This document shows positions 14,703 through 51,349 of a stretch of DNA of 64,000 nucleotides, piece after piece. Below the pieces are notes generated by a model. That model saw only the letters and a list, made by a program, of their open reading frames with translations, was not told the origin of the DNA and did no database searches. A program made the translations under genes and the position numbers. The first letter of the stretch is position 1. Each line of letters begins with the position of its first letter. This DNA is from Gordius albopunctatus (lineage: Eukaryota): NCBI GenBank assembly GCA_964276515.1, contig OZ193909.1, positions 17,360,001-17,424,000 on the forward strand, given 5' to 3'.

Positions 14703-16302
14703 TAGCACATGAAACGAATTACGGTATTAAGACAAAAAACAAAATTATGAAAAATGTCTCAACGATATCTAGTATATCTAAATTTTATTTAAATAGATCC
14801 CCTAATTATTAATAATTCACACAAAGTCATCGGTTTATTAACAATCAGAATAATCAAAAATAGGCCGAGCTTTTTTGATATGCCAATTTGAATCCAATTT
14901 TTATGAAGATGCCAAATATTTTCATTTTAACAATGTTACACAAAAATGGATAGCAGAATGTACTGCTATATCAACAATAATAAGAACAAATAGCTTTAAA
15001 TATCTCTTAAGTCTATATCTTTTGCTAGATTTATAATGGCTTTTTGCAAAATGTTTTAACGGTGATGTAATGCAATAGAGCTGTTAACGCTATTTTTCGA
15101 GTAACGTATTGTTTAGATAGCAACTTGAGAGCTACCGCTCTTCATTTCAATAAAGTATTGATCTAGATTTAGAAATAAATCCTATATATTGTTTTCTTCT
15201 ATTCCATTTAATTAGACCTTTAAAATAAATTTTAATCCATCCAGCAGACCTATTAAAGAACACAAAATATTTTGACCCTGTCTTTTCCAATGCTGAACAT
15301 TTTTAATTGAACTCTAAAAAATCAAAGCCAGAAACAAAAGCCATAAATAAAAAAAATAAAAAAATTGTAGATTGTTTAGTTATATAGTATTTTGTTTAGA
15401 ATTTCAAACTCGAAACTATAGATTAAATATGGAATAAAATATTTAAAATAGAAATAGCTTTTCTTTTAAACGCTACACTGGAAAAAGCGCATTATGAACA
15501 CTCGTTTGTTATCGCTACTTTATAATTGTATAAAATTGTGCGAACTGCTCTGATTTAAAGAATATCTATGGATGTTAGGTACAATAATTTTTTTTATTCA
15601 TTTTGGGTTATTAAAAGGCGCTTAAATTAAAACAGAAAATTTATATGGGAAATCCAAGTAATGCATAATTTTTGGCTACTATACAATTTTTACAACTTTT
15701 GTACAGCGCTTTCCAGGAACGTTGGAAAGTGTTTTAATAGGTAAATTCATTTTAGCATTTAATTATTATAAATATATAAATCTTAAATAAACCACAATCG
15801 GTTTTTACAATCACGTCCCGCGCTTAACATATATTTTTAAGGATGGACTCATGATTTTGCCTTAATTTTCTCAATATAGTAATTGAATATCTTGTCAAAA
15901 ACCATTACTAGAGCCCTGTAAGAGTAGTTAAAACGTTGGGAGATAATTTAATAAAAATTACAGCTTAAGTAGGCCCGAAGGCAAGTTTTAGTTAACAAAC
16001 CATAAAAATGTCCTTTCTCCATACACACAGTATTTTATCTAACCTACCCTATGCAAAATATCGTTTTCTGTTCTACTTTTTTAAGGTTTTTGATTAAAAT
16101 TCTATATATTTTCCTTAAAATTATTTTGGGCTAAAAAACTTGGACTTGACAATAATTTCCCAAAACTTTACCATAATTTTATTGCCTGATCCCTGCTTAA
16201 TAAACCATCCAGCAGGATGTTGCCCTTATAAGTTAAATTATTTTAGTTAAGAGTGTTATGCTTTTAATATAACAATCCTCAATTACAGTCTAACGTATAG
16301 CA

Positions 16303-17115
16303 TGTTATAAAATCACAAAAGTGCTAATGTACAATTATGATAATATTATCATTATATAAGCACATATTATAAAGGATACAGTTCGAAGAAAATCAGTATT
16401 TTATTTATATCCGAGAAACTGCTAATGTTAGGTTGATAGCGCATTTCACAGAAAGCGAGGGGGGGATAGTAGGAATAAACCAACCATTACATCCTCTTCT
16501 TCTAGACAGCTTTCTCCGACCCGAGTGTTGACTTTTCTCAGCTCGGTCTTCGGACCTGAGTTTCTGACAAAGAGCAGACTTTTCCTCTGGTAGATTGTTC
16601 GGGCATATGTATCAAGCGATTTTTTCGGAAGACTTAATTGGGTTCGCACGTATCTTGGGTTAACGGGATATGTCTTCTACGATCGTTTTCTCTCTCTTTT
16701 TCCCCTTTCAAGCGTGCTACAAGGGGGGGGGGGGGTGTTGTTGTTATTCAACGTGACATCAATGGCTAACGATCAACTACGTATATCATCAAGGCGTCAT
16801 TGGTTTCAGACTACTCTACCGAAAGTTTTTTCACGCAACACCGCAGTATCTCTCTTGGTTTCTTTAAACGATCTCTCAGCTAGAAGTAGACAGAAGCTCG
16901 CCAACCCAGCTTCCTCAGGTCACTCACAAATGAAACCTATTATAATATTCCCACGACACGGGTACGGATATTTCCGTTAAATTATTTCTAACGTCGCTAT
17001 ACCACACATCACAGCCATCGGCGCCTGGGTGGTATAACTTCTTATCGAACAACGTGCAATGTTCCGGTAACCAACCCACTCGCCATCAACAAAATTCATT
17101 ATAGCGATTAAAGTT
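16303..17115 (-). mobile_element. ~800-bp solo-LTR-like repeat, copy 1 (copy 2 at 39669-40440)
   Basis: Long colinear similarity to 39669-40440. On the minus strand it has AATAAA near the end and terminates ...TATAACA. No conserved coding signature. Confidence 0.6.
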
Positions 17116-21769: not shown

Positions 21770-23643
21770 GTCCAGTCAAAATCGTGGCTTCTTCAACGTT
21801 GCACATCAAGCGTTTTACAGCAAAACGTAAACCATTGCAAAATTTTGGCTGACTTAAATTGCACATCGCGATACTTGGTACGCCATATTTCGAATGCAGA
21901 ATGTGAGATGGCATCGCTGCCAGATTATTTGAATGGAAAGATTCGATTGCATAATTTGCGTCATTAATAACAACAGCAGTGTCAACCGACTTGTAAGTAA
22001 TTGAATTGCCTTGAATGTTAGACAGAATGAGATTGTTAAGCTCGTGGACGTCATTATTCTTGGTGGTGAGAATAGCCTGTTGGCGGAGCCAAAGTTGATC
22101 ATGATAATGGGCGTTAATATTTGGAAACACTTTATCAACCAAGCAGTTTAGATGGAACAAAATTGCAAATTTTGGTAGGAAAAGATATCCGTCCTGAGCA
22201 TAGATCAACGTGCACGGTTGCCTTCCCAATTTCTAGCAATTAATGGGAGAATATCTAACATGCAGGATGATTTAGAAATACTACACGCAGATTAGTAGTT
22301 AGATTTAATGTTTTGACATAAGGCAACAAAATTAAATATTTTAGGCAAGCATTAATTTCATCCGCAGGGGTGGATCGTAAGAGAACCGCTAAAGTTTGCC
22401 TGAAATCTCCTGCAAGCAATAACCTTGCGTTACCAATAGGTTTGATGGTTCTTTGTAAATCTTGCGATTACCGATTAGAACTTAGAGCGGTTTTTCATAA
22501 GCCATTGTGCATTCATCCCAAACGATAAGTTTGCACTTCTGTAATACTATACCCATTCCATATGTTCTGGAAATGTTGCACATTAGAGTTTCACAGTAAT
22601 AAGCGTTCAAAGACAATTTTTAGTGACAGCCCTTCCGGAACACGCTAGAACTACTGCTATATTAATTTGGGAACGAATAGTTGCCAGAGCAAAGTCAGTA
22701 GGAAAGTTTTACCAGTCCCTTCTCAAGCATCTAAGAAGAAGCTTCTCCTTAACCTTTATTAACAGCAAGCAAAATTTTATTGTAAGGGGGGGGGAGGCGA
22801 AAACTTTTTAAGTTCAATTAAAATGGGGGGGGGGGGCAAAATAAATTTTTTTTGAATTTTTAAGGTTTTTTTTGTCATTTAAGGGGTGAGGGCATAAAGC
22901 CAAGGGCTATCTACCTAGACTATTGCGTTCCGCAGTTGAATGGTTGCCACGCTACCACCATCCTCTATTGATCTTATTTTCTATAAAGGATACGCATCAC
23001 TGCCCGTAATCTAACTAATGTAGAGCCGACGTTCTGATTCCATTTTGCCTCACATATTACATTGATGGAATAATTGGCGGCATTTTAAATATGATTTTCT
23101 TCGTGCTCTCGAAGCATTATTCTTGCATTTCAAGTTTGTCGGTTAACCATTGTCTGCATTTATCAACTTACCGTTAAAGTAATCTTTTTGTACTTTTAAT
23201 ATTAATAACCGAACTTCATAAAAATAGCAAAAAAGCACGAAAGGTGGGAAGGTTTCTACAAGCGCGCCTTATATTTATATAAGAAAATGGTGATGTTTTA
23301 CGGTATCGAGAATATTTATTTGTTACAGCTTTATTTATTGTAAAAAACGGGCGTAGTTGAGTAAAAAATTGAGACACAAATTACAAAGCAATCATGGAAA
23401 AAAGTTTAAGGTAATTAGTAGTACCATAACGATAAATAAGTATAAAAACGTAGTATAAATAATCCGCTAGATGGCGGTATAGACTGCCAAAAAACATGGT
23501 TCCCGCTGTCGCAGGTTGATAAAAAGCATCTATAAATCATCTACAATGCTAAGGCAATAATCTGGCCAAATTTGGTGGCAATCGGTTGAGAACTCTAAAA
23601 GTTATTAGCGTTCAAAAAAAGGGACTTCGATTTTATATATATA
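21770..23643 (-). mobile_element. Degenerate Helitron (subfamily B) with PIF1 pseudogene; 3' end not found
   Basis: Shares the 5' terminal region (AACCGATTGCCACCAAATTTGGCCAG, CCATCTAGCGG) with the other copies; frameshifted PIF1 fragments; closely similar to 49744-51300. Confidence 0.85.
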
Positions 23644-24031
23644 CTAGCTGTGCCTGGCTAAGCGTTGCTTTGGCTCAGTCCTTAAGTGGTTAAATAAGTA
23701 TAACCTATTAATAAGACTTATCTAAAATGGGGTCATATATGAAATAATTTATAATGTGAAAGGTCCGAATGCTAATGCAAATAAATATCCATAATATTCA
23801 TTTAAGAGCGATATAAAATATTTATTAATAATTCATAAGAGTATATAAGCATTAAAATATAAAAAGCTTATAGTTTTTTACTAAGACAATCAATCGCCCC
23901 TGTCATCGCTAAAACTAATTCTTATTCTCTCATGATTTCAATGTCCATCCTTATTTTGCGCAAAATATATTTATAAGTGAGAATTGTAAAGGTGATAAAA
24001 ATCGCATTACTAAGAAAATTTTAAAGTGAGA

Positions 24032-24105: not shown

Positions 24106-24899
24106 GAGACGTACTTGAAAAGCGATATTGAATGTGAGCGGCATAAGTCCACACTCACTAAAAACCCGTATAAGTTTCCACAGAAGCATCCTGATTAATC
24201 TTATAACCAGCTTTAAAAGATTAATAAATATTCTATTATCCATGCCTATATAACAATTACAACCCAATAGAAGTGTCGGCTAAATCGAAAAATGCTTATT
24301 ATGATTATCATAACATAAACTGAATGATGCATACTTAAAAAATTCTGCATAATTCCAATTAAATGGATAGAAGAGATATTGTGTTACACTTAGAATTTTA
24401 TTATCTTAATAGCATTCTTTAACATCTCATCATCACAGCATTTTGATTTGTTTAACAGACAAGCAAATTGAAGCCCTCAAACATTCATCACTAAACCAAT
24501 TATGAACATTCATTTTAAACAAAAAAATCATTCATCATTATATTAGACCAACAAAAAAATACAAAGAGAAAGTGATTGATCAAATCCTCAGTATTGATTT
24601 TACTTCCAAACAACAATCATATTAACTATTATCAGAAGAAACTCCATGTTTACAAACACTTTATAATGTTTCCATATTACAAAATGTAAGCAATGTATAC
24701 CTTACAAGTTTTAATATGACCTTTGTTGAATCCTTTGAGCCTTTTTTTCCTCCAATATCATACAATTAATAACACTTTTCCCAGATACTCTTTTGTATTA
24801 TTAAACTTACAAAATTCTTATAAATCAAACAGCTTTAAAATAATCCCAACTTTAATTTTAATTGTCCAACCTCATCAAGGTTTTTTTTATTCCACATAT

Positions 24900-27851
24900 G
24901 TTAATCTCTAAACCCCTATGCCCAACCTGTAAGCGACGAATATGCCTTGATAAACATAATTGTTTCTGGATTCATGGCCCAGTGTCTTCAAGATGCCCTT
25001 CTTCGGGCAAATTACCTCCACCCTGCTTACCAATTCCACCCCTGGCTTCTAACTTTGAAGAGGCTCCCCTATTGCCAATTCCTAGCCCCGTCATCCCCCC
25101 ATCCTTACAATGCTCCCCATCAATTAATCAACCGCCTGACTCATCTTGGAGCAATTCTTTTTTAACAAACCCATTTCCTAATACTATCTCCAGAATCCCA
25201 AGAGGAGCCAGACCTTCCATCCAACAATCTCTGCTAAATATATTCACTTCCATTATCAAAAACCCTTATAACTTAACCAATTGGGACAAACTTTTTAAAT
25301 TCCCATATTATATCCTTTATGTTAGGGAACCTAATGAACATAATTTATCAAGCCTCATCAAGGAATCCCTTCTGTGTTTTAATACGGATGTTCCCATTAC
25401 ATGCACAAGTAAAACAAAACCCTTTCCACTGGAACCCACAATTAACCAAACAGCCAAGCACATTTCAAATAAAATCCATAATTTCAACCCAAGAAGTGCC
25501 CTTAGAGCTTTTTATGATAACAACTCAATTGCCCCTTGTTGCCCTGACTCTTATAGGGAGCTTAATCAAAAACACCCAGCAGCATCATCAGCCAGTAAAT
25601 ACCCCACATCTCCATCATCAATAGTGCTCGAGTCTTCAGACATCCGTGAAGCCCTTAACTCCTTTCCTTTGGACTCCGCAGCCGGACTTGACGGATGGCG
25701 CCCAGTATATCTACAAGATTTACTCAACCTGAATAATTTAAATACTGAACCTCTTTTAAATTCTATTACTTCCTTTTGTAATATCATTGTTAACGGAAAA
25801 TTTCCTCATGAAATCATCCCTATTTTATTCGGTGCAAAACTTATCGCCATCAAAAAACCGGATAATTCAGTTAGACCCATCGCCATTGGAAGTCTTTTTC
25901 GCCGTATTATATCAAAAACCCTCTGCAAACTCATAAAACCCTCCTTATCCGCCAAGCTTCGCCCTCATCAACTCGGCTTCGGAATTAAAGGCGGATGTGA
26001 GGCAGCCAGCCATGCTGGCCGGATCACACTCCAAAATATTTCCACCGAGTCCTGCTTTGTTAAATAAGATTTTGCCAATGCTTTTAACTGCATTCGAAGA
26101 GAAACCCTTATTAACACTTTTTTAGCTGAATTCCCACAATTCCTAAATTACATTTTATTAAGCTATGGTTCTACAACCAAGCTTCGATTCGGCGAATACG
26201 TCATTGACTCGCCCGAAGGCATCCAACAAGGAGATCCATTAGGCCCTCCTTTGTTTTGTTTAGCCATTCATAATTTAGTCGAGGCTATATCATCTCAGTG
26301 TATCCTGGATTTAAATGTTTGGTATCTCGACAACGCCACCCTATGTGGCCCCCCGGAGGAGATCAGTAAAGCTATACAAATTATCAAAAATTTTGAACCC
26401 ACTCTGAATCTTACATTAAACTCGAAAAAATGTGAAATCTTTCAGGCCCCCAACACTATTGACTTTCCAATTTTTAAACCTTTTTTAGTTTTAGAGAAGG
26501 AAAACATATCCCTTTTGGGATCACCCATTGGCGGTGAAAAATCTCTCTTAAATTTTCTTCATAAGAACCTTGAAATTTTCAAATCTAAAACGGAACTTTT
26601 AAAATGCTTGCCAGCGCATCACTCATTTTACATAATCAAAAACTATTTTAACATCTCAAAGATTAATCATTGTTTTCGCTCATCTGGCGCATTTTTACAC
26701 CCAGACGTTTTAAAGTCGTACGAAGGCTTTTTAAAAACATTATTAGAAAAAATTTTAAATTTAAAATTTAATACTAACAATTGGATTCAAGCATCCCTCC
26801 CAACCAAATCTGGAGAATTAGGAATTCGCCCTCCCGGCAGCATATCGCTAGCCGCTTTTATTTCTTCTTTTAAGTCGGTCCAAAACTTAATTTTTAATCT
26901 CATAAAACATGATTCCGACCCCCTGCTAACTCAAGCCTTGGAGCTTTGGAATTTGAATGTCACACCCGAGACCATCCAGCCTCAAAGTACGAGACAAAAG
27001 GATTGGGATTCTGGACTAGTATCGCGCTCCGTTGATTACCTCTTATCGAGCAGCGATGATAGCCAGCATTACAACCTTAGGTCCCTCGCTTTTGACGGTT
27101 CCGGTCACGAGTGGCTTGAAGCCTATCCCAGCAAACTTTTGGGAATGCTGCTTAAGACTTTGAGCTATCATATTCCATAGCTTTAAGTTTGGGGATTAGT
27201 TACAGCAGAGAATTCAACTGTCAAAACTGCCTTACCGTTGTAGACGAATATGCTAGGCACCCTCTACACTGCCTAGCAAACAAACATAAATACGTTAGGC
27301 ACACTAAAGCTAATTTATTAATTCAAGCTGCCCTTAAAAAGGCCAAAATCCCCTCAATTCTTGAGCCGTCCGATCCCTCCCTTGAAGGTAGGATGCGCCC
27401 TGACGGCTCTTCTCTAGTCCCCTGGCAAAATGGCCTATCCCTCAAATGGGATTTTACTTGTATTGACCTTTTTGCACCTTCCCATTTTAATTACGACCCT
27501 ATCGCTACAGAAGAAGGACGTAAAACTACAAAGTATTCTGCCCTTTTGGCATCCAATATTTTTATCCCTGTCGTTACCACGTGCTCCGGTTCCTTTGGCA
27601 AACAGGCAATGGGGTTTTTTAAAGAAATCGGAAAACGCACCCCGAAATCTAAAATTTCTGCGTCCTTTTTACTCAGGCAACAACTAGGGATTCTTGTTGA
27701 ACGATACAACTTTAAATCCTTCGCCGACTCATGGCCCATTTTAGAAGAGAATGATATAAATCTTTGTATTTAACCAATATGTCTTTATTTTTGTATTTCG
27801 CTTATTAATGTAACTTTGTTTCTTGAAAATAAACTTTTTAACAAAACAAAA
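24900..27851 (+). mobile_element. CRE-like non-LTR retrotransposon (Zn finger, RT, C-terminal restriction-like endonuclease), inactivated
   Basis: CPTC...HGP...RCPSSG; SAAGLDGW; VRPIAIGSLFRR; K*DFANAFN (stop 26065-26067); GIQQGDPLGP; WYLDN where YLDD is expected; CQNC...HPLHC, RH and RPDG RLE motifs after a frameshift; AATAAA and A-rich tail at ~27828-27855. Confidence 0.9.
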
Positions 27852-28251
27852 AAATAAAGAACTGCATGAAGATTTTGGCTGAAAGTATAATGTAAAAAAT
27901 GATGTAAATAGTAAAATAAAACCTGCAAGGGAAAGTTGATGGATAAAGGGTAAATCAATGATAGGTCTTATGAAGAATAAGGTAATACACGTACAGTATT
28001 ATAGCTTCTTGTGAATGTCTCCTCAAATTTGGTTATAATACTCTGGCGTAATAAAAAGGGGAGAAATGCTAAAAGAAATATAAGATCAATGGGCTTTTAT
28101 GGTAATTGCTAAAAGTTATAAGTGGATAAATAGAAATGACACTAACTTTAATTATTCATGCAGAAAAGTAGTGAGGCGTTATAAAGAGGGTTGTAGGTTC
28201 GGGTAAGAGATGCTTCGCAGCTTAACTTCTGCCTTAGAAAGGAACAAATTG

Positions 28252-29460
28252 CTATAATGCTTGGGGATAGACAATATTTTTGGTCATGTTATTTTCTGTG
28301 TATATATAGAGATTTAGTGGATTGCCGACGCGCGAACATGCAACATATAATTGTCCATGTGAGAAGCGATCTGTTTCTAAATCGATTCCACAAAATTCAA
28401 GGGACTGGCCTTGAGCTTTGTTAATGGTTATAGCAAATGCGAGTTTGAAAGGAAATTGCAATCTTTTAAATTCAAAGGGCATATCTGTTGGAATTAAAGG
28501 GATCCGTAGTATGAAAACATCCTCTCCCGTGAAAGGTCCAGTCAAAATCGTGGCCTCAACAACGTTGCACATTAAGCGTTTAATAGCAAGACGTGTGCCA
28601 TTGCAAAGTTTTGGCTGATTAATATTGAGCAACATGATAATCGGTACCCCAATTTTCAAATGCAAAACGTGTGGTGATATGCCTGGAAGATCTAGAGAAT
28701 TTAAAAATTCGATCGGATAATTAACAGCGTCATCAGCAATAACAACAGTGTCAACCGACTTGTAGGTGACAGGACTGCTGTGAATGGTAGACAGAATGAG
28801 ATTGTTAAGTTCGTGGACGTTTTTATTCTTTGGGGCGAGAATTGCCCGTTGACGGAGCCAAATTGGATCTAGATAATGGGTGTTAATATTTGGAAAAACG
28901 TTTTCCAACAAAGCGGTTTTGGAAGGCACAAATTGACATAAGTTTGTAGGAAATGAAATCCGTCCTGAGTTTATATCAACGGGCACGGTTCCGTTTCCAA
29001 TTTCTAGCAATTGATGGGAGAATAACTCACATGGTTGTTTATTTTGTAACACTACACGCATATTAGTAGTTAAATTTAAGGTTTTGACGTAAGGCCACAA
29101 AATAGAATATTTAAAGCAAGCATTGATCTCGTCAGCAGTGGTTAATCGAGGAAGCACTGGTAAAGTTTGCCTAAAATCTCCTGCAAGTAATAAAAATGCG
29201 CCACCAAAAGGTCTGGAATCGCGCCGCAAATCTTGCAAAGAACGATCTAGAGCTTCGAAAGATTTTTTATGGGCCATTGTGCATTCATCCCACACGATAA
29301 GTTTGCACCTTTCTAATACTTTACCCATTCCAGATGCTCGTGAAACGTTGCACATGGGAGTTTCACTATAATGAATGTTTAAAGGCAATTTTACAGCAGA
29401 ATGTGCAGTTTTACCACCAGGCAACAATGTCGCAACTATTCCGGAAGATGCAAGAGCCAC
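28252..29460 (-). pseudogene. Helitron PIF1-like helicase fragment, open 402 aa but lacking the Rep/HUH domain and Walker A
   Basis: ASSGIVATLLPGGKTAHS, VWDECTM, GDFRQTLPV, LCNGTRL, TINKAQGQS, FSHGQLYVACSRV; no upstream GxGKT motif visible. Confidence 0.88.
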
Positions 29461-30494
29461 GGCTATTTCATTTTGGGATATTAAAAAGATATAAATATGA
29501 AATTAGCATTTAAGATAGCATTGCATTGCCATTAAAATTTAATTATATTAAATATATGGATTTTAAATATGATGAACTTACCTTATCCTGTCACAGATCA
29601 CAAACGTGTGAATGTGCAAATGTTACTTTAATTGTATTAAATATATGGATTTCTGTCACAGATCACAAACGTGGGAATGTGCAAATATTACTTCGAACTT
29701 CGTAAATATGGAAAAAAATCACGAAACGTGGGGATGTTTCTAAAAGCGCGCGTTATATTTATTTAAGTATATGGTGATGTATTACGGTATCTAGAATATT
29801 TATTGGTTACAGATTTATATATTGAAAAGAAAACGGGCGTAGTTGAGTAGAAAATTGAGACACAAATGACAAAGCAATCATGGAAAAAAGTTTAAGGCAA
29901 AAAGTAGCACCATAACGATAAATAAGTACAAACAACGCAGTATAAATAATGCGCTAGATGGCGCCAACCAAATTAAAAAACATGGTTCCCGCTGTCGTAG
30001 TGTGATAAAAAGTGTTTACAAACCATCTACAATGCTAAGGCAATAATCTGGCCAAATTTGGTGGCAATCGGTTGAGAACTTCAAAAGTTTTTATTCTTTT
30101 ATTCTTGAGTCAGTTTATTAAATAATCACCACCATTTATCATTAAAATAAAGCTTTGTTTCTAAACCATTGACACCGTTAATTTCTAATACATCTATAAA
30201 TAAATGAATAAACATATTTAATTTTATAAAAATTTAAAATTTAACCTAATTTTTTTCATAATAGATATGTACTTTTTCCAAATAGTGTATTATAATAAGT
30301 TAAAAAGGATACCAAAATTTGCAATATTCTTTAAGGTCGAGTAGGTTGCTAATCTATAAATTTATTTTCTCCAATTATTTATATATAATATTAATTTCAT
30401 GTTCAAATGAAATTTGCAATAAATAGGTAAATACATTGCATTACATAAATTAATATGCATTTAAGGGTAGATTTGGTGTGATTTTATTTAAATT

Positions 30495-34168: not shown

Positions 34169-34801
34169 TCATAAATCCATTTTGAAATGAATTAATGAAT
34201 CGGTAGATTCAAAAGAGTAAAAAGTCTTATACTTTTTTGGTTTTATAATACGTTTAGAAGGTAGTAAATCAAAAATTGAAGGTAACTCTTTCGCCTTATT
34301 ATTAAGAATTCGATAGTAATCCTCATTTCTAATATCACTTGAAGTTAATATTAGGCTATAAACCGTTGAATTGCAATTATTAAACAAATATCTGGGCTTT
34401 ATATTATAATTAATAGTTATATTCAAAAACAATTAATTATAATCTTCATATATTTCTTAATTAAAATAAAATAATGGCGCACGGGGCCCAAGATTTTTCG
34501 CTTGGAGGGGCCCATGGGGCCCGGTTTTTGCTCTTGGGTGGGCCTGGGCCCCCCCTAGCTACGCCACTGTTTTTAAGGAACGTTAGATAAAATATTCAAA
34601 ATATTTTAGTTTTTTTATTATTGTTATCAAGGATATTTTGAAGTTCAAAATAATATCTTTTAATCTTGCACACCCAATTTGGCAAACGAACAAACTGTTA
34701 TTTTACCTTTAAACCTAACAACAGTTTTAAAATATTTTTGATCTCCGAAAGTTTTTTTATTTATTTTAATTGATTTTTAAAAATAAAAGAGCTCACACTC
34801 A

Positions 34802-34970
34802 CCAAAAGTCAGGGGAAATGTACTTTGAACTTTCATATATTTGGGAAATCTTGTAGACAAAAACAAAACAGTTCACATTGGCCAAAAGTCAAAGGAAATG
34901 TACTTTAACTTTTAAATATTTGGGAAATCTTGTAAACATATTATTCCTGATCTGATCACACTATAAAAAT
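34802..34970 (+). promoter_or_regulatory. Putative promoter of the micro-exon gene: duplicated ~57-bp module plus TATA box
   Basis: Direct repeats 34802-34858 and 34882-34938 (CCAAAAGTCA..GGAAATGTACTTT...TTTGGGAAATCTTGTA); CTATAAAA at 34961-34968, ~100 bp upstream of ATG 35063. Confidence 0.55.
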
Positions 34971-35062
34971 ACAAGCTAAGTAATCAAATCCATTCCATTC
35001 TAACATCCAATTCTATTACAGTTATAGCATATTGCTTAAATATCAAAAAACATATATTAACA

Positions 35063-38000
35063 ATGAACCTTTTCACCATAATTTTAAGCACCTTGTTTCT
35101 CTCACTTGTCTTATCAGGTATAGTTTAAGTTTATAATGTACGTATATAAATTTAAAAAAAGGCATTTAATGTTGTGATTAATAAAAAATAATTATTTAAA
35201 TTTAATATTACTACGAAGAACAAATATATAATTTATCTTTTTAATCATTTAGCCCCCAAATCTGCCATAGATGGTGAGTGTGATAATGAATAAATTTTTT
35301 GACTAAACTATAGCTTATATTTTTTTACAATTTACTTTGAGACACAACGTTTAAATTGTTAAAATGTCCACTGAAGTTGTATCTATATTATAAAACTCAA
35401 ATTCTGTAACATCTAATTGGGTTGTTTAGTGCAAAATGATGACCCTGTGAAAACTGTTGTCCCTCTTGCCGGTAAACCAAATTATGAAAAAATACATTTT
35501 AAAAGCATTTAAATAATTTTTTTATTAATTTTTATTACATAGTTATGGAAGACATATTTTGGGAAGACTAATCAAATCATTTATTAATTATTAGCGAATT
35601 TATCAAGTAATGTCAACGATATTCCTTCCAATATCTTGATAAAATGTGTGTTAAAAAATCAAATTTGCCACGACATCTAACGAGGCTATAAACACTAAAA
35701 TATCAAAAAAATGTTTGTATTATTTAAAAAAAGTAATTTTTTTCAAAGAAAATTGTTTGTTTAAATTAACTTTTAGAAGTTCAACAAGGCGAGGCTATCA
35801 AGGAGACTTCGGCCTCAAGTAATTTTATTTAATGTTTAATGTCTTGTCTATAGATTGATAAATACATATTTCTGTTAAATTTTATATAGCCAATGTCACA
35901 AGTAGCAATTTAAAAACCATATCTTCGTTTATAAAAAAACCATATCATAATAAATATTGTTTATAGCTCAAAATCCACATTATGGCCATCACTATTCCGA
36001 AGGTTAACTAATTAAAAGATTATTTTTAATTATAAAATAAAAATACTTTTCAATATCATTATTATTATTTTGTTGCGTAGTAAATTTAATTTTATTACTA
36101 TTTTCATCGGAAAAACAATTATAGAAGTACAGAATGATGAAGAAATCACTACAGCTGCAGGTACACTAAGCCATTTATATAAATTGCCTAATTTTTATAA
36201 TAAATAATTATTTAAATTTATAAAGTTGCAAAACTAATAATGCTTATTAATATAATTATAGTTAATGTAACCTCTAAAGGTATATTAATTGTTTTAAAAT
36301 AACTTTTAATCAAAATATATGATTTTTTCGGCCATGGCTACACATACCATTTATTTTAGTAAGCGCAACTATTTTGAAAAATGCGTTTCTTATAATTAAA
36401 ATTACGAACAGGTTCGGTAATTTGTTTGTTTACGTGTAAAGAATAGCTATTTGTAGAACAACATGGATGACAAATGTAAAAAACAAACATATAAATAGTT
36501 GTTTTAATCTAAAATTTATTGGAATTCAAATCAGAGGTCAGATTTGTTAGGAATTTTATGCCCGAACCCGGCCCGGTTCAATTTTTGAACTTCATTGCCC
36601 GCCCGAGCCCGCCCGAACCTTCTAGGTGCCCACCCGGGCCCGCCCGAAACATTAAAGCTGTCCGAACTGCCCGGCCCGAAATATTAAATTTGCCTGTTAG
36701 GCCTGAAATTTTGCGATCTCAAATTCTTTCAGCCACAATTAAAAAATAAGCATTAAATTAATGGCATATTTAATAAAACAAGTCCATGAAAATATTTATG
36801 TACCAATTTTTTAATTAAGTTTAAAGTTGACATATTAAATAAATAATATTACAATAAACAAAATTATACTCCCCTTTGGAGTTAACCCCTTTGCCCAGCC
36901 CATAAATAAACTTCTTAATGAATAAAATTAGTTCAATTAGTCAATCTGTGTTCTGTTAAAACTTACTTTTTTGATAAAAAGACAATAATTTATCAATAGA
37001 ATTTAAATGCAATTTATGGATAATTCTTTTAACTTAAAGCAAAAAAAGAAAGGTATAGAAATTTTTTATTATGAAAATAATTAGTAACTTAGCGAAAGCG
37101 ATGAATAATAAGGAAATAATAAAGGTTAATTAGAGAAACTTTGTGATGGCGAAATCAAGTTTCTTAACTTTTTTAGCATTTTAATATGCAATAAAATAAA
37201 AAGTAACAAAATAATACACTATTTAAAAAATCTTATTAAGCCCGAATCCTATCTTCGTGCCGAGCGCCCGGGCCCGCCCGAAAATAAAAATTTAGGAAAG
37301 TTGCCCGGCCCGACCCGGCCCACGGGCCGGTCAATCTGGTCTCTGATTCAAATCAAAGTTTTAAGTAATTAATTTTTGCAAAATAATTTATGAAATTTTT
37401 TTAAGTTTCAAGTTAAATGAATATCAAAACAATCAAATTTAAATGTCTTTTTTATATAATTTAGTTTGATTTCATATTTTAAATAATATAAAAATGAGAA
37501 TTGTATATATGTCTAGGTTCTTATTTAACTTTATTGATAAAGCTGACCTTTAATGTGTTAGATACACTAATAAATTGATAAAATACTGTAATAAATAATT
37601 TAGTATAAAATACATCTTTTATTAACCATAAATTATAATATCAAAATGTACAGATCATTTTAATAAATTTAGGAATTTTAACACAGGTGGAAGAGTTTTT
37701 TGCACTTCAATAGGTTTGCTTTTCTGCTTAAAGATTAAACCTAAAAAAATTGTATAATATAATTAATATGTATTAATTTACTAGTGTTCTTTTTCAATCT
37801 ACCATTGCCTTTCCTAAACTTTGAAAGCATTTTAATAGACTCCAATCTATTTTCAATACCTAAAAAGTTTACAACAGTTTAAATTTCACTTCTGTGCAAA
37901 ATCTAATATGTGCAAAATCTAATATAGGCAAGGGTTAGGGTTCGATTTAGTGATTTATTTGATAATATGTATTTATTTATAAAATAGTATTATACATTTT

Positions 38001-39351
38001 GATATAACTTATTTTGTTTCAATTAACAATTATAGTATCCTTTTATTACGTAGTTTTTTAGTACATATTACATGCGTATGAATATGCGTGAAAACCGGTC
38101 TCAATTTCTAAAATACGAATATTACATTATTAGATTTTGCACATATTAGATTTTTCACCAGATTCTTAGATTTAATTACTTTTTAGAAAAGGCTGTTGGG
38201 AATCACTAACATCATAATTATTAGTAACTATGTTGGATTGTTGAGGATTACCTACATCTTAATTAAGAAATTAACAATAAAACTTAAGTTACTCGCAGCC
38301 ATTCTGAAAATTTCAAGGACTCTACGTTCTAACATATTAGCTTTGAAATGTTCAATACCAATGAAATACATATCAAACAACTTATCATCCATCTCACATG
38401 CTATGGAATTTAATTCTGAAGTTATGGTCTAGAATTTTTTGATTTTTGGACAATGATCTTTCAATTGTAGGCCCATTGTGAATTTGAATGATAACCCCAT
38501 TTTCAGAATCCACATCATTTGGCCCAGATTTTACCCATCTCTCTGGGCATAATTTAGTGTCAAAGTATTCAATGTTGTTAAATTTCCTTGCCTTAAAGGG
38601 GTGACAACAAGGCAACAATATGCTGCTTTTAAAGCCACATGAGCATGTGGTTTCTGTGATATAATAATTTTTTTTTCATATTCCGCCTTAGCCTTGAGTA
38701 AATCAAATAGTTATTCGAAATAATATCCAAAAGTTTCTTTCTATAACGATATAATACTTTAAAAAAATTATACTTACCGTCTTTATACAATTAAATGACC
38801 CTAGGCGATTAAAATCAAACAAAAAATAATTGCGCTATTTAATTGTAAACAACGACATCATAATACCGATCATTTGTTGATCGGAAAATGGTAATTATAA
38901 GAAACGAATTTTTTGAAAATGGCTGCACATACTAAAATTAATGGTATGTGTAGCCATCGCCATCTAAGGGTAGTGATTTTAAATAATCTATAGTAGAAGT
39001 TCAACACGATGAACCAGACAAGGAAACACATCCTTTTGGTATTGTATTGCAAAGAATATTAAATTTAATTAAAATATTAAATTGTAGTCAATTCAACTAC
39101 AGGTAATTTATATATTATATTTTAAAAAATCCCCCAAAACAAATAGCCTAATATGTCTATTTATATATATATTTAAGCATCTGCTCCAACCACTTTAGAA
39201 GGTAAGTCACCTTATTTAATTACCATAAAAAATAGAATGAAAAAATTAAAATTTTATTATAGAACTTCAAAATGATCAGTCACCTGGGAATATCACAATA
39301 TATTTAGAAGAGTATAGTGATGGTTTTCCAATTATGTATTATAATAAGTAA
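35063..39351 (+). CDS. Candidate micro-exon gene encoding a ~133-aa secreted, N-glycosylated low-complexity protein; exons 35063-35117, 35253-35273, 35430-35471, 35595-35606, 35777-35818, 35890-35901, 35967-36002, 36125-36160, 36262-36279, 39088-39102, 39178-39201, 39263-39351
   Basis: Each internal exon is bounded by AG and GT and is phase 1/1, with lengths 21, 42, 12, 42, 12, 36, 36, 18, 15 and 24. Joined ORF: MNLFTIILSTLFLSLVLSAPKSAIDVQNDDPVKTVVPLAANLSKVQQGEAIKETSASTNVTTQNPHYGHHYSEEVQNDEEITTAAVNVTSKVNSTTASAPTTLEELQNDQSPGNITIYLEEYSDGFPIMYYNK*. Hydrophobic N-terminal signal peptide. Terminal exon uncertain. Confidence 0.75.
36532..37345. mobile_element. Non-autonomous hAT (Hermes/hobo-like termini) in the long intron of the micro-exon gene
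   Basis: TSD ATTCAAAT; termini CAGAGGTCAGAT / ATCTGGTCTCTG, the same family as 44205-47170. Confidence 0.92.
37655..38660 (-). pseudogene. SWIM zinc-finger C-terminal remnant, probably from a MULE/Mutator transposase, with short introns
   Basis: TTCSCGFKSSILLPCCHPF...FDTKLCPERW (CxC-x9-CxH); further exon-like pieces at ~37803-37859 and 37655-37740; interrupted by the MITE at 37887-38165. Confidence 0.65.
37887..38165. mobile_element. MITE, second copy of 11419-11691
   Basis: Near-identical sequence; TSD TTAAATTT / TTAGATTT. Confidence 0.85.
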
Positions 39352-39668
39352 TTTAATTATAATTTACTAATTCAACATTTGAGACGAAGTTCTCATAATA
39401 TTAAAATTACCCCTTTCCTCAACTTTCAATATTGTCGACACTTTACATGATAAAAACCAAGTCATTTTATAGCTACTTCATTCATTAATAATCTCTTACA
39501 ATTTCATACACATTCATACACATGCCTTTATATAAACCAATATCTTTCATAATATGCTTATATACTTTGTTATCGCTTAGAACTGATCAATAAATCAATT
39601 CAAAACGCTCTGTTTTTTTATTCCCTGAATCGTATAAATAGTGATGCGGAAAACTGAGAAAGATATCA

Positions 39669-40440
39669 TGTTATAAAGTCACAAAGGTGCGAATGTATAC
39701 TTGTGATAATATTATCATTATATATGCACATGTTATAACAGATACAGTTCGAAGAAAATCAGTATTTTATTTATATGCGAGGAACTGCTAATGTTAGCTT
39801 GCTAGCGCATTTCACAGAAAGCGAGGGGGGGATAGTGGGAATAAACCAACCACTACATCCTCTTCTTCAAGACAACTTCCTCCGACCCGAGTGTTGACTT
39901 TTCTCAGCTCGGTCTTCGGACCTGAGTTTCTAACAAAGAGCAGACGTTTTCCTCTGGTAGCTTGTTTGGGCATATGTGTCGAACGATTTCTTCGGAAGAC
40001 TTAATTGGGTTCGCACGTATCTTGGCTTAACTGGATATGTCTTATACGATCGTTTTCTCTGTCTTTTTCCCCTACCAAGCGTTCTACTAAGGGGGTGGGG
40101 GTTGTTGTAAAGCAAAGTGACATCGATGGCTAACGATTGACTACGTATATCATCAAGGCGTCATTGGTTTCAGACTACTCTACCGAAAGTTTTTTCACGC
40201 AAACCCGCAGTATCTTCCTTGGTTTTTCCGAACGATCTCTCAGCTAGGAGTAGACACAAGCTCGCCAACCCAGGTTCCTCAGGTCACTCACAAATTAAAC
40301 CTACTATTCCCAAGACATGGGTACGGATATTTCCGTTAAATTATCGGTAACGTCCCTATACCACACATCAGCCATAGGCGCCTGGGTGGTATAGCTTCTT
40401 ATCGAACAAAGTGCGATGTTCCGGTAATATAGCGATTAAA
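39669..40440 (-). mobile_element. Solo-LTR-like repeat, copy 2
   Basis: Colinear with 16303-17115. Confidence 0.6.
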
Positions 40441-41040: not shown

Positions 41041-41809
41041 CAATTAATATTATATTACAATTGTTTTATCGTCAAAATTCTGATCTACCAAAATTTGGAT
41101 ATGACTTAATTTATAATATTTAATTTGCATATGACGAGACGAGAATTTTAATGTCGAGATGATACGAGATTCTTTCGGCGAGATCTCGACTTTTTATTGA
41201 TCGTTAGATTTTAGTAAATTATTGTGTATTTTAATTTGCATGATTTACATTTAAAAAATTAAGTGTAATTCAATATGTATGGAATATATTTGATATGAAA
41301 AAAATTCCTAAGTGTAGTAAATATTATATATTTTTGCAAAAAATTTAAAATTTGCCAATCATTTACCTTGTGAATAATTTTATAATCAAAATTTTAGGTT
41401 TAGAATGAGATATGATGGAATAGGAAATATTACTAAAGCATATTTGAATTTCGCAGTTACTCATCCTGCATGATGCGGTAATTATAAATTGGTGTTCAAT
41501 CAGTTTGAATAAGTATACAAGTTAAACTAAGGTGGCTCGAGATTTTTAAGCACCCGCCTAACGATTTCAAAAGTACAATAGAGTATTTAATGACACCGTA
41601 ATAGATTAAATCTTAAATCATGAGTTTTTTAAAAGTTTTTATGCTTTAACTAACATTTTCGAATCTCAATATTCTGTGAATACTGTAGTGTAGCGTCATT
41701 CAAGGTTGCATTTTAAATACACGCGTTTTTTCCTATACTTGAGCGCGGTCAAGTCACAGACATTTGATTATACGCGTAGCCATTTGAATACACCCTAGTT
41801 TACTGTAGA

Positions 41810-42921
41810 GAGGTATCAAGCGAATGCAAGAAGTGGCGCGGCAGTATATATGGTGGCCTACTCTCGACGATGACTTATTGAGCGTAGCGAAAGGGTGCCT
41901 GAATTGCAATTACACGGCCACGGTGGCGAAGAAGGCACCGTTGATAGAGTGTCAACCCAGCCATAAACTATGGGTCCAAGTACATATCGATATCATGGGT
42001 CCTCTCAAGGGTAAGTCATACCTCGTGATGGTAGACAAGAGCTCGAAATCGGTAGAGGTGTTTAAATTAGAAGACACCACATCGACAACCATTATAAAAA
42101 AACTGGCCGAAACGTTTGCTAGATTTGGAAATTCACCATGGTTAATATCAGATAACGGTCCACAATTCAAAGGGCAGGATTTACAGAACTTTTGCAAGAT
42201 GAGAGGGATTAATCAGCGATGGACAGCTCCTTACCATCCTGCGTCAAACGGTTTGGCAGAAAGATACGTACGATTAATGAAAGAAGCCATCCTTAGGAAC
42301 GAGTCGGAAATAGGGCTAAGTAGATTTTTGGAAAACTACAGATCGACAAAACACCCCGCAACCAATAAAAGCCCGGCAGAGATGATTTTAAAAAGGCGTA
42401 TGCAAACCGAATGGGAGGTATTAAGGGAAACCGTACCAAAACAATGGGTAGAGACCGGGAACCCGCGAATTTTCAACGTAGGAGACTTGGTTTGGGTACG
42501 CATGTTTTTGGGTCCAAGCAAATGGGTAGAAGTCACGATAAAAGCCAAACACGGGAGTCGTTCCTACGATGTATGGGCACAGGGAAGAAAGCACCACCGA
42601 CACCTGGATCAATTAAGGAAACGGAGAATCCTGGATTGGACCACTCTGGGACAAGAGAACGGGTGGCTACAAAGAAGATCATCAGAAAGGGAAGAGGGAA
42701 CAAAGCCAAAACCAGGCAGGAACGCCTAGGGAAGAACCGAGATCCGGAGATACGTTATTTACCTGCGTGTTTACGTTATTTACCCGCGTGTTGTCGATCA
42801 AATTATCGTTAATTGGTTGTAACTTATATATGCGTTTGTTATATACGGTGAAGGTCACTTTTTCGAGTATTGTATCCCAGTCCTAATAGTTTATGTGAAT
42901 AAAGATCCAGCCCTTCAACAT
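41810..42921 (+). mobile_element. Ty3/Gypsy integrase fragment with possible 3' LTR remnant
   Basis: YIWWP...CLNC; VHIDIMGP; LISDNGPQF; APYHPASNGLAER; YRSTKHPATNKSPAE; AATAAA...CAACA near 42900-42921. Confidence 0.88.
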
Positions 42922-44204: not shown

Positions 44205-47170
44205 CAGAGGTCAGATTTGTTGGGAATTTTCTGCCCGAACCCGGCCCGATTCAATTTTTTAACTTCGTTGCCCGCCCGGGCCCGCCCGAACCCATCTAAG
44301 TGTCCGCCCGGGCCCGCCCGAATCGTTAAAGCTGCCCGAATTGCCCGGCCCGAAATATTAAATTTGCCCTTTAGTCCCGAATTTATGAGGTCCCAAACAG
44401 AGGTCGGATTTGTTAAATTTTCATCCACGTCCTTGTCTAAAACATCATTCAAGTATGAATCGATCTCATCTAATGCCGTATCATCTTCATCATCAGCCCA
44501 TTCCGAAAATGTCGCCTTTCTTTTTTTACCTGCTTAAATAAAGTATAGGGCATCATAAATTAATCTTACCATGAGAGATTGGATCTTTAGGAATGGTTAC
44601 ACTTACAACATCCATTTCTTCATAATCTTTAATTGTTTTGCGCACAAAGCTAATAACTTCGTCCCTTTCATTTTGTCCCAGCATTTTTAATTTTCGAAAT
44701 CGGGGGTTTAGCATTGTTGCTGCTTTATGATATAATGTGAGCGCAAAAACCTCGTTAATTTCATCTTTTAATCTTGTTTTGAGAGTGGAAATTTCGTCGT
44801 GGTCTTTTGGATCGTTTTTTAAAGAATCAATTATTTTAATTTTCCACAAAAATATATAAGGAAAAGTTGTATCCGAATCAGCCTGAAGCTGAGTGCTAGC
44901 TTCTTCAAATGGCATTAAAAGCTTAATAATTTCGTTGAGCAAGCTTAAATCAATATTCATTAACTTATGAGTTTCACACTTTTGCGTCAATATTGTGCCA
45001 ATATTGTCGTATTGACGTTGTATTGATTTAAGCATGGCCAATTTTGTATTCCACCTAACATCAACGTCTTGATGCAAGGTGTACTTAAGATCTTTGTTGA
45101 GACCACTTTGTTTAAAATATTTTACTAGTATTTTTGAATCATTTAAAATATTGGAAATTTCTGGGGCAAAATCTTTTAAACAACTTTCTTTAAAGGAATG
45201 TCTTAATATTGTATTGATTAAATGTGCTGTACAGTTGTAACGGTTATACTGTTCCAGGGCCTTTTTAATATTTGCGCCTTTGTCTGTGACAAAATTAATT
45301 GATTGAAAACTTTCCTTTTTAAAGCCAAATGACATGAATTTTTTTATTAATTCAGTTTTAATATTTTCTCCGCTTTTTTTATCGGGATTAAACTTTGTCG
45401 TGAAAAGAAGGTTATTTGATAATACCCAATCTTCATTTATATAATGCAAGGTAAATGATATATAATTATTTTTAATATGATCGTCTACCCACATATCTGT
45501 GGTGGCAGACACGAGGCCGTTGTCCAAATAAGGAATTAACTTTTCCGCGACATCCTTTCTTAATTTGTCGGACAAATTATTTACATTTTTTGATATTGTA
45601 GTAGGATGAGGCATTATATTATTAATATCTATGTGACCTTTGGAAGCCCCAATATCAATTAATAATTGACAAAAAGCCTCGAAGCCTTGGCCTGCAATAG
45701 CCTCAAATGGCCTAATATCTTTTGCGCAAAATAATACTGCACTTTTTGTTAGCTTTTGTTTAATCTCACTAATAGCATTTAAAGCGAGATTTTTATTGAT
45801 GTATTGTGTTATTTTTGGATTTGAGGGAATGCATGAATGCCTATTTAAATGCGAAGTTCCATCGCTGGATTTATATTTTAAAATTTTACAACAATTTTTG
45901 CATATTATAAAGCCCGAATATGCGCCAGCGCCATTAACTATCGTTTTAAACTTCTGCCAAACAGCACTTTTTAGTTCAACATCTTTTGTTGTAAAAACAC
46001 CATCATCAATACACTTCTTCACATCTACTGGGTTCAATGAGGCACACTGACTACTTTCTGACGAACAAGTTGACATGCTGCAAATGAGAAAATATATAAA
46101 ATAGTTCATTTATTCAGCAAAATATAACTCAAAAGTAAATTTATCCAGGAACTAAGAGATTTTCAGAATACAGTAACAGAGTTTAAATTTAGAATAGGGA
46201 AGACCGGGGACTAAATAGCCATTAAAAATTGTGGGAAGGGGTGAAAATGCTTATAGGGGGGTATTAAATGCAAAATGATTAGTTAATTATTTATACAAAT
46301 TTTCTATGCCTACAAGAAAATTTAAAATTAAAAATTTAAAATTGGGAGGTTGATGCTAACTAATAATAATGACTCGTCTTACCGTAGATTATTTATGATG
46401 TATATGACATTAAGTTATGAAAATATTTGAAGTGGTTTTAAGAATGTTTCATAAATAAACAACAAAAATAAGAATGCAATATTTTGGACAATTTGCGTCA
46501 AACTTAAATTACTTATAACATATGAGAGAGTTAAAAGTATAGGGAAATTCAGCAAGCAAATAATACAAGATATAATTACTTTTAAATAAGTCTAGTATAA
46601 AAAAATAAATATCGATATTTGAATTAATTTAGCTAATGATCATATAATCAAAGTAACTGTTAACAAATAAATCATAAATCTACTCATCTCATAAATTGCA
46701 TAGCAATTAATATAACTTACTTTGCCATAGAATGATAATTTAGTTGTTAAAAAATTTAAATAATTAGAATGTAACACTTATATTCGCGCGCATTGTTAGA
46801 AAATGGCATGAGCCCTTGTTTTAAGTCTAGACGGCGACGGCACACATGTGTGTGTAAGTGTATTGCGAACATGAAATGGCTACATAAATATAAATAATCC
46901 AATCCTTTTCTGAAACTATAAACGTACGATAAGGATTTAAGCGATGGAAAAAAATCTAGTCAAAAAATTGTTTATAAGCGAATTTTTCTTTTTTCGAGGA
47001 AAATTAATTTGAAAAATTTTTGGCATGCCCGAATTGCCCGAATCTTATCAGCGTGCCCGCCCGGGCCCGCCCGAAAATTAAAACTTAAGACAGTTGCCCG
47101 GCCCGGCCCGGCCCATGGGCCGGGCCGGGCGGGCCGGGCAGCGGGCCGGGCCGGGCATTTCTGGTCTCTG
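44205..47170 (-). mobile_element. Hermes/hobo-like hAT transposon with a long transposase ORF but lacking the C-terminal catalytic/dimerisation segment
   Basis: TSD CAAGGAAT; termini CAGAGGTCAGA / TCTGGTCTCTG; GCCCG subterminal repeats. Confidence 0.95.
44410..46109 (-). pseudogene. hAT transposase (BED finger, first two catalytic Asp), C-terminally deleted
   Basis: VWQKF..CKNC..GTSHLNRH; DIRPF; ATTDMW; VTDKGANI; CTAH; VRWNT. A short intron at ~44530-44569 precedes an acidic exon that runs into the terminal repeats with no SERxFS motif. Confidence 0.88.
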
Positions 47171-48779: not shown

Positions 48780-51349
48780 CTAGCTGTGCCCGGCCAAGCG
48801 TTGCTTTGGCTTAGTCCTTAATTAGCTAAATGGGTCAATCGTTTATTGTTAAGCTGTGTAACGCACAGAAAAGTTGAACGTTGTAAAATAGCGAACCTCA
48901 ATCCCGATTTGCTATTCGTTAAAAGCACAAAATGATGAGTTTTGACGTTTAGTACGTGTTTTTTTACTAGCAGGGGATTGGGTGGGGATTTGCAAAAAGC
49001 ATTGTTACTTTTGACGATCTCATTGTTATACCATAGTGTTTCTAAATTTGAACGTCATAGAGATAGATAAGTAATACATTTAACTGATATAATTATATTC
49101 ATCTTAATAACATTTTCTAAGGAGGTAGATGCTAATTGTGTTGTCACTTTCTTGTGCCGAAGATCGCAAAACACTCAAATACCGAGCCATTGCTCATTCT
49201 AAGATTTTTATTCCAATAGTAGCTTCCTGTTCGGCCACTTTTGGCAAAAAAGCATTAGCTTTTTTTAAATCGATAGGAAACAGATCCCCCAAAGCTAAAT
49301 ACTCACCCAGCCTTATTTTACGCCAAAAAATCGGAATTCTGATAGCTAAATATAATTACAAATCTTTTTCTGACACATGGCCCGTGTTGGCTATTGACAA
49401 TTGTGATGAATAATTTTTTTTTATTTATAATATTATTTTAAGTCCGTTTATTGTATATTTCATGTACCAATTTTAGCGAATAAAAGCATTTTAATCATTA
49501 AAAAAATATTATTTTTTACCCTCTTGGGGTGTTTTGCCCCCCCCCCCCCATATTAATGTTCAATTGTCTTGTTTAATGTATTTGTTTGTTATCAAATCTG
49601 GAATGAAATAATATATAAAATATAAAAATGTATATAATACCTTTCTAAAACTCTTGTGTATTAGTTATCTCTGTTCTTGTTTAATGTATTAGTTATATCT
49701 AATTCAAATTTAGGATAATTGAAGTTCAAATTTAAAAACGCTAATTGGATTGCCTTGAATGTTAGACAGAATAAGATTGTTAATCTCGCGGACGTCATTA
49801 TTCTTGGGGGCGAGAATAGCCCGTTGGCGGAGCCAAAGTCGATCATGATAATGGGCGTTAATATTTGGAAACAGTTTATCAACCAAGCAGTTTAGATGGA
49901 ACAAAATTGCAAATGTTGGTAGGAAAGATATCCGTCCTGAGCATATATCAACGTGCACGGTTGCCTTCCCAATTTCTAGCAATTAATGTGATAATATCTA
50001 ACATGCAGGATGATTTAGAAATACTACACGCATATTAATAGTTAGATTTAATTTTTTGACATAAGGCAACAAAATAGAATATTTTAGGCAAGCATTAATT
50101 TCATCCGCAGGGGTGGATCGTAAGAGAACCGCTAAAGTTTGCCTGAAATCTCCTGCAAGCAATAACCTTGCGTTACCAATAGGTTTGATGGTTCCGTTGT
50201 GCATTCATCTCGAACGATAAGTTTGCCCTTCTGTAATACTATACCCATTGCATATGTTCTGGAAATGTTGCGCAAGAGTTTCAAAGTAATAAGCGTTTAA
50301 AGACAATTTTTAAGCTGAATGAGCAGTTTTTCTACCGGGTAATTATGTGACAGCCCTTCCGGAAGACGCTAGAACCACGGCTATATTAAATTGGGAACGA
50401 ATAGTTGCCAGAGCAAAGTCAGTAGGAAAGTTTTACCAGTTCCTCCTCAAGTATCTAAGAAGAAGACTTCTCCTTTATTAACAGCAAGCAAAATCTTATT
50501 GTAAAGGGGGGAAAAACGTTTTAAGTTCAATTAGGATGGAGGGGGGGGGGGCATATAAATTTTTTTTGCATTTTTAAGGGTTTTTGTATTGAATTATTTT
50601 TGTCATTTAAGGGGGTGGGGGCATAAACCCAAGGGCTATCTACCTAGAATGGTTGCCACGCTACCACCATCCTCTGTTGATCTTATGTTTTATAAAGGAT
50701 ACCCATCACTGCCCGTAATATAACTAATGTAGAGCAGACGTTCCGAATCCATTTTGGCTCACATATTACATCGATGGAAAAATTGGCGTCTTTTAAATAT
50801 GATTTTCTTCGTGCTCCCGAAGCATTATTCTGTATGAATAATCATATAACTGCATTTCAAGTTTGTCGGTTAACCATTGTCTGCATTTATCAACTTACCG
50901 TTAAAGTAATCTTCCGAACTCCATATAAAAAGCAAAAAGCACGAATTCTAAAACCGCGCGTTATATTTATTTAAGAAAATGGTGATGTTTTACGGTATAA
51001 AGAATATTTATTTGTTACAGCTTTATTTATTGTAAAAATACGGGCTTAGTTGAGTAAAATATTGAGACACAAATTACAAAGCAATCTTGGAAAAATTTTA
51101 AGCAAATTAGTAGCACCCTAACGATAAATAAGTATAAAAAACGTAGTATAAATAATCCGCTAGATGGCAATAGACTACCAAAAAACGTTGTTCCCGCTGT
51201 CAACCATCTACAATGCTAAGGCAAAAATCTGGCCAAATTTGGTGGCAATCGGTTAAGAACTCTAAAAGTTATTAGCGTTCAAAAAAAGGGACTTAGATTT
51301 TTAATTGCTATGCAATTTATGGGCTCGTCGTTTTATATATACAGATAGA
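48780..51349 (-). mobile_element. Helitron (subfamily B), both termini present, PIF1 pseudogene, containing a CRE 3' fragment
   Basis: Minus-strand A|TC at 51350/51349 and CTAG|T at 48783-48779 with the GCCAAAGCAACGCTTGGC hairpin; GDFRQTL motif. Confidence 0.9.
49140..49506 (+). mobile_element. 5'-truncated CRE-like retroelement (RLE C-terminus + 3'UTR)
   Basis: EDRKTLKY...IFIPIVASCSATFGKKALAFFKSIG...LRQKIGIL...KSFSDTWP is homologous to the end of 27189-27773; AATAAA and a short A-tail follow. Confidence 0.85.

Follow-up and report, generated by a model that had tools for sequence, protein, structure and literature searches.

How can a gene be recognised when most of its coding sequence lies in exons of 12–42 nucleotides (nt), and does such a layout mean that the exons are skipped? 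These questions are raised by positions 35063–39351 of a 64,000-nt stretch of DNA from the hairworm Gordius albopunctatus (assembly GCA_964276515.1, contig OZ193909.1, positions 17,360,001 to 17,424,000, forward strand), referred to here as the window. An original prediction, made by eye, described at this locus a secreted protein encoded by symmetric phase-1 exons, in the manner of the micro-exon genes (MEGs) of schistosomes, and suggested that exon skipping varies the product. Our analysis indicates that the micro-exon gene is very probably real and of a type that ordinary annotation lacks. New here is the observation that its four shortest exons each open with an N-x-S/T site for N-glycosylation (a sequon) and that each follows, as the second member of a pair, a longer exon opening with a Gln-Asn-Asp-like motif.

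The gene model and its coding constraint

The full model comprises 13 exons on the forward strand, with 444 coding nt and 147 residues. Exon 1 (35063–35117; 55 coding nt) encodes a predicted signal peptide of 18 residues and ends at a phase-1 donor, and exon 2 (35253–35273; 21 nt) encodes the predicted mature N-terminus. Four pairs of a long and a short exon make up much of the remainder: exon 3 (35430–35471; 42 nt, with a Q-N-D motif) precedes exon 4 (35595–35606; 12 nt, sequon NLS), exon 5 (35777–35818; 42 nt, tandem acceptor) precedes exon 6 (35890–35901; 12 nt, NVT), exon 8 (36125–36160; 36 nt, tandem acceptor) precedes exon 9 (36262–36279; 18 nt, NVT), and exon 10 (38997–39038; 42 nt, or 45 nt via the tandem acceptor 38994) precedes exon 11 (39088–39102; 15 nt, NST). 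Outside the pairs stand exon 7 (35967–36002; 36 nt), a His- and Tyr-rich long unit without a sequon partner, the spacers exon 2 and exon 12 (39178–39201; 24 nt, Ser/Thr/Pro), and the coding part of exon 13 (39263–39351; 89 nt), in which the Q-N-D motif and a fifth sequon are present unsplit, together with an acidic Tyr/Phe/Ile-rich tail and the stop codon.

Each of the 12 introns is of the GT-AG type and lies in phase 1, and all 11 internal exons are symmetric, accounting for 300 of the 444 coding nt (68%). Apart from intron 9, which is enlarged by a transposon, the introns measure 49–170 nt; with the transposon subtracted, 6 of the 12 fall below 100 nt. The GC content is 0.42 in exons versus 0.18 in introns. 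The ten internal exons first proposed (21, 42, 12, 42, 12, 36, 36, 18, 15 and 24 nt) hold up, with AG/GT bounds and phase 1, as does their joined frame of 133 residues without an internal stop; the list was incomplete, since an eleventh symmetric exon, exon 10, had been overlooked, as had the transposon and the pattern of one sequon per exon. A TATA-like box, TATAAAA, is present as claimed at 34962–34968 (forward strand), 101 nt 5' of the ATG, and is the sole TATA[AT]A[AT] match in 34800–35063, although by itself it is weak evidence in DNA of 27% GC. Directly 5' of it, 34779–34938 contains an 80-nt unit twice in tandem, the copies being 85% alike. Downstream, motif matches on the forward strand give candidate poly(A) signals at 39400 (ATTAAA) and 39589 (AATAAA), spanning 39400–39594.

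The worry that symmetric exons had been selected by eye was checked with a frame-blind parser, which has scores for splice sites and for base composition but none for the reading frame. Its composition term was trained on the Nsa2 and BTB-BACK genes of the window, its splice-site frequencies were generic, and it was applied to the two parts of the gene that lie outside the transposon, selected after the exons were known. Segments with a length divisible by 3 amounted to 11/11 at penalties of 10 and 12, 11/12 at a penalty of 8 and 8/8 at a penalty of 14. Nine of 11 segments, exons 2 and 3 among them, are identical to the model; one takes a tandem acceptor and one, at exon 4, favours the later donor 35645. 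The resulting 51-nt form of exon 4 was ruled out, as it creates a stop where it joins exon 5. Across 900 shuffles of three kinds, about one third of segments were symmetric, with a maximum of 7, and the total parser score, 121 for the observed DNA, never exceeded 96. The symmetric fraction outside the gene was 0.33–0.38, and when the whole window was parsed without the flank filter, the micro-exon gene again gave the longest symmetric run of both strands (8; next 5). Furthermore, 11 of the 11 exons are open in phase 1, compared with 7 in each of phases 0 and 2. The symmetry of all 11 exons proves coding constraint, not skipping.

The claim of a signal-peptide exon within a MEG-like architecture is also backed by tests independent of symmetry. 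The leader of exon 1, uncharged and hydrophobic, is unique among 38 ATG-to-phase-1-donor candidates in the window. In addition, contigs from two DNA-like sequencing runs of one study are identical to 35099–36299, with zero differences, and exons 2–9 are therefore no assembly artefact.

Sequon exons and the origin of the array

In the four shortest exons (12, 12, 18 and 15 nt), Asn is the first full codon and Ser or Thr the third. When all stop-free AG-GT pseudo-exons of 12, 15 or 18 nt were collected from both strands (n = 125), only four were sequon-first, all of them from this gene, whereas none of the 120 outside the gene span was. The third codons of the sequons are TCA, ACA, ACC and ACT, and Val too is encoded by differing codons; because the codons of the sequon exons change synonymously, the residue is kept while the DNA varies. 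The signal resides in the placement of the sequons, not in their number. Among the matches listed in a literature search, micro-exons linked to sequons were single-site cases (e.g. FBLN2 exon 9), with no array.

The long units also share sequence. In exons 3, 5, 7, 8, 10 and 13, one of the first two full codons encodes Gln, and in most of them Asn or His and then Asp come next. Over the first 15 nt, long exons share 7.1 positions, compared with 4.0 +/- 0.5 in 20000 shuffles, and over nt 16–36 they share 6.5 of 21. Similarity between equivalent introns was not found (z at most 1.5). This combination suggests that the gene arose through an old tandem duplication of one ancestral phase-1 exon pair. 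Duplication of such a pair keeps the phase, and symmetry alone therefore gives no proof of skipping. Within symmetric arrays, a duplication origin is here separable from selection for skipping.

The predicted product and competing explanations

Cleavage of signal peptides follows the -3/-1 rule, on which basis a cut after residue 18 is predicted. The mature chain of 129 residues would contain 21 acidic and 7 basic residues and no Cys, with a pI of 4.4 and 24 Ser/Thr among 128 residues counted. A charge-hydropathy plot places it in the unfolded range, and no membrane anchor is apparent by hydropathy. All six long units have Gln in common, His and Tyr abound in exon 7, and the tail of exon 13 is rich in Tyr; cross-linking chemistry is a possible role for these parts. 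Homology searches covered exon 1 and the last exon, as opposed to the spliced protein. The 33-residue frame of the last exon had no credible relative among 1.84 billion proteins, the nine matches with E up to 0.001 being dismissed as long repetitive proteins in which several weak stretches were summed. An atlas search with the same exon gave a best score of 0.79, under the chance level, and no Pfam family was found for exon 1 or the last exon.

We lean, narrowly, towards a product that is a secreted, acidic, unfolded glycoprotein, made mainly in full length and forming part of a coat or mucus-like covering on the exterior of the worm. The role in a coat is suggested by composition and by analogy. 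After the ancestral pair was duplicated, selection would have retained both motif and glycosylation site, and the remainder would have diverged. The flexible chain would then carry as many as five N-glycans, set at even distances like the teeth of a comb, and probably O-glycans too; its aromatic tail may hold or polymerise it, a mode proposed for MEG-4 and MEG-8 of schistosomes. The full-length form would dominate, and some in-frame skipping could tune the number and spacing of glycans.

The analogy with schistosomes is close in several respects. MEGs, especially MEG-4 and MEG-8, likewise have a signal peptide in a longer 5' exon, small symmetric central exons and a longer 3' exon (PMC4671649, PMC4350168, 10.1101/2023.06.21.545858); their products are small and secreted, with a disordered Thr/Ser/Pro-rich middle and a hydrophobic tail, and they too have a transposon within the gene and belong to a parasitic animal. 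For MEG-4 and MEG-8, whose disordered middle is glycosylated, a mucus-like net has been proposed (PMC4671649). In the hairworm gene, the flanking coding exons (55 nt, with the hydrophobic leader, and 89 nt) are longer than the internal ones, and most of the coding sequence (68%) lies in very small symmetric exons. The comparison relies on papers later than the original descriptions, in which MEG exons range over 6–81 bp and introns over 0.1–5 kb, the strict form has a central part made mostly of exons <36 bp with up to 75% of the coding sequence, and the genes are said to be platyhelminth-restricted (10.1101/2023.06.21.545858, PMC4350168, PMC4015677). By these measures the hairworm gene departs from the family: 8 of its 11 internal exons are <=36 nt, representing 39% of the coding sequence, its introns are shorter, the animal is a nematomorph, and the protein search with the last exon returned neither a MEG nor any credible match. 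Moreover, MEGs are described as mainly O-glycosylated, whereas here long and short exons alternate, with one N-glycosylation site per short exon. Other marks of MEGs are isoforms generated by skipping, expression in host-facing glands or epithelia, and multigene families with recent paralogs. The polymorphic mucins of Schistosoma mansoni (SmPoMuc) offer a second likeness, being secreted acidic glycoproteins (pI 4.3–5) whose small exons were duplicated in tandem, again in a parasite that confronts an invertebrate host; they differ in consisting of near-identical 1-kb repeats with one 27-bp exon each, under concerted evolution (PMC2576457). In the hairworm gene, the units are exon pairs, the exons have diverged, the sites are N-linked and the equivalent introns are unrelated, as opposed to the >93% identity of the exon and intron repeats of SmPoMuc. 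The gene thus resembles schistosome MEGs and mucins by apparent convergence, not as a family member.

The caseins and other genes of the SCPP group, and tropoelastin, encode secreted disordered proteins in many small exons of the same phase that arose by duplication, and in tropoelastin two exon types alternate in phase 1. These are vertebrate structural proteins with no homology to the hairworm gene, and by analogy they show that the layout need not mean immune evasion.

It is possible, if rather unlikely, that the locus is an independent variation system of the MEG or SmPoMuc type, in which combinatorial skipping would yield products of variable length with 1–5 N-glycans and confuse lectin-based recognition by the arthropod. 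In keeping with this, the original statement that any exon may be skipped without a frameshift extends to the enlarged model, as all 2048 subsets of the eleven internal exons are distinct and stop-free, each with 1–5 sequons. No exon ends in T, so that no stops arise before the five exons starting with AA; each sequon sits in a separate exon, the four short exons that carry one rank among the weakest by the composition score of the parser, and three exons (5, 8 and 10) have in-frame tandem acceptors. The animal is a parasite, and splicing in SmPoMuc alters predicted glycosylation facing an invertebrate host (PMC2576457). On the other side, symmetry follows from the duplication of one phase-1 pair, so that few independent events are needed, and the introns of 49–170 nt are short compared with the 0.1–5 kb of MEGs. 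Short introns favour constitutive, intron-defined splicing and thus argue against heavy skipping. The donors match the U1 consensus at 4–8 of 9 places, compared with 5–6 in Nsa2, and are not weaker than those of that gene; in addition, no paralog was found within the 64-kb window. We find doubtful, likewise, a variation system evolved independently in hairworms in which each N-glycan site is a skippable exon and splicing writes a combinatorial glycan pattern on a secreted protein where worm and arthropod host meet; if true, no MEG-like system would have been described before in a parasite among the ecdysozoans.

Two further explanations carry less weight. A formerly functional gene may have been crippled by the transposon, so that it is now silent, ends early after exon 9 or survives as one decaying copy from a small family, but we regard this as improbable. 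The element is the remnant of a DNA transposon (36330–38961), recognised by terminal inverted repeats that are 87% alike over 70 nt and by high depth and joints in the contig data, although no clear target-site duplication was found at its ends and no joint spanning the whole element occurs among the 15 listed of 358 joints. Intron 9 measures 2717 nt, or 85 nt without it, and the gene would then occupy 1657 nt. A 2.6-kb insertion holding candidate splice sites, where other introns are <=170 nt, is what damage might look like; however, all 13 exons are open, the GT/AG sites are intact on both sides, and the element is not new, its repeats having diverged and other elements having nested within it, yet exons 10–13 are undamaged. 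Very improbable, finally, is a chance pattern within AT-rich non-coding DNA that was selected by eye. AG/GT pairs are indeed frequent, with ~420 parser segments per strand, and symmetric runs of 5 are found outside exon clusters, but 11 symmetric segments against at most 7 in the shuffles, four of four sequon-first exons against none among the pseudo-exons outside the gene, a shared exon motif exceeding all 20000 shuffles and a signal-peptide exon with no second case in the window all speak against it.

Several points weigh against the preferred reading of a mainly full-length, N-glycosylated and unfolded coat protein. N-glycosites of human proteins lie mostly in ordered regions, according to one study (PMC7142085). 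At the level of the whole protein, the five sequons are only mildly enriched for the composition (P = 0.014), the parser picked other boundaries for 2 of the 11 exons, the 2.6-kb transposon in intron 9 may disturb splicing, and the model is a prediction from the DNA sequence.

If the model is right, a nematomorph case would represent convergence of the micro-exon layout in an almost unstudied parasitic phylum and suggest that such genes escape ordinary annotation. Its product would be a first candidate secreted surface protein for the hairworm–arthropod interaction, and one glycosylation site per micro-exon raises the precise question of whether splicing sets glycan number. No report of micro-exon genes in Nematomorpha was found among the papers listed, judged by title or abstract start, a scope that leaves room for listings in subscription papers (the 2023 hairworm genome paper included) or in supplements.

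The source animal, neighbouring genes and repeats

The Nsa2 gene (13480–14702, reverse strand) has a first coding exon of 3 nt, just the ATG, and its introns, at 35 and 36 nt, show that very short introns occur in this animal. Its protein is 91% identical to a Gordionus protein, the next five matches being 79% or less, and the two form a clade with 100/100 support, joined by a long common branch; the tree was built from 19 sequences out of 120 matches listed, with no nematodes and a bootstrap that had not fully settled. Since Nsa2 groups with Gordionus, the DNA comes from a nematomorph, though not from that Gordionus; by sequence, this placement relies here on Nsa2. Hairworm larvae parasitise arthropods (10.1101/2023.06.26.546503), and this parasitic life fits the idea of a host interface. 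A divergent BTB-BACK gene, with Pfam BTB and BACK domains, occupies 1364–2996 and upstream on the reverse strand, and a search with its BTB exon found no relative among longer proteins.

With respect to further copies of the micro-exon gene, summed contig depth over 35107–36310 is, in both runs, 2.5–4x the depth of the exact-match contigs, which may point to similar copies elsewhere, although summed depth is not copy number. At position 35007, in run X2, a contig over the upstream region has a differing base and twice the depth of the exact-match contig, a hint of further copies or alleles.

Smaller elements are nested inside the intron 9 transposon at about 36520–37350 and 37870–38165. Additional exons in this intron were ruled out, the candidates lying between the terminal repeats, in high-depth repeats. 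A hAT/Hermes-like transposase reading frame of 518 residues is present at 44553–46109 (reverse strand), with element ends near 44202 and 47123; the nested element at about 36520–37350 shares its end sequences and looks like a non-autonomous derivative. A 650-nt repeat occurs at 16297–16943 and at 39663–40307, 90–92% alike, the latter copy just 3' of the end of the micro-exon gene. Elsewhere in the window, Pif1-like helicase regions, presumably Helitrons, are found at 3860–5980, 27961–30092, 21770–23829 and 49742–51274, two inverted copies being 96–98% alike, along with a non-LTR retroelement with reverse transcriptase (24862–27773, forward strand) and an LTR-type (long terminal repeat) integrase fragment (41809–42729, forward strand).

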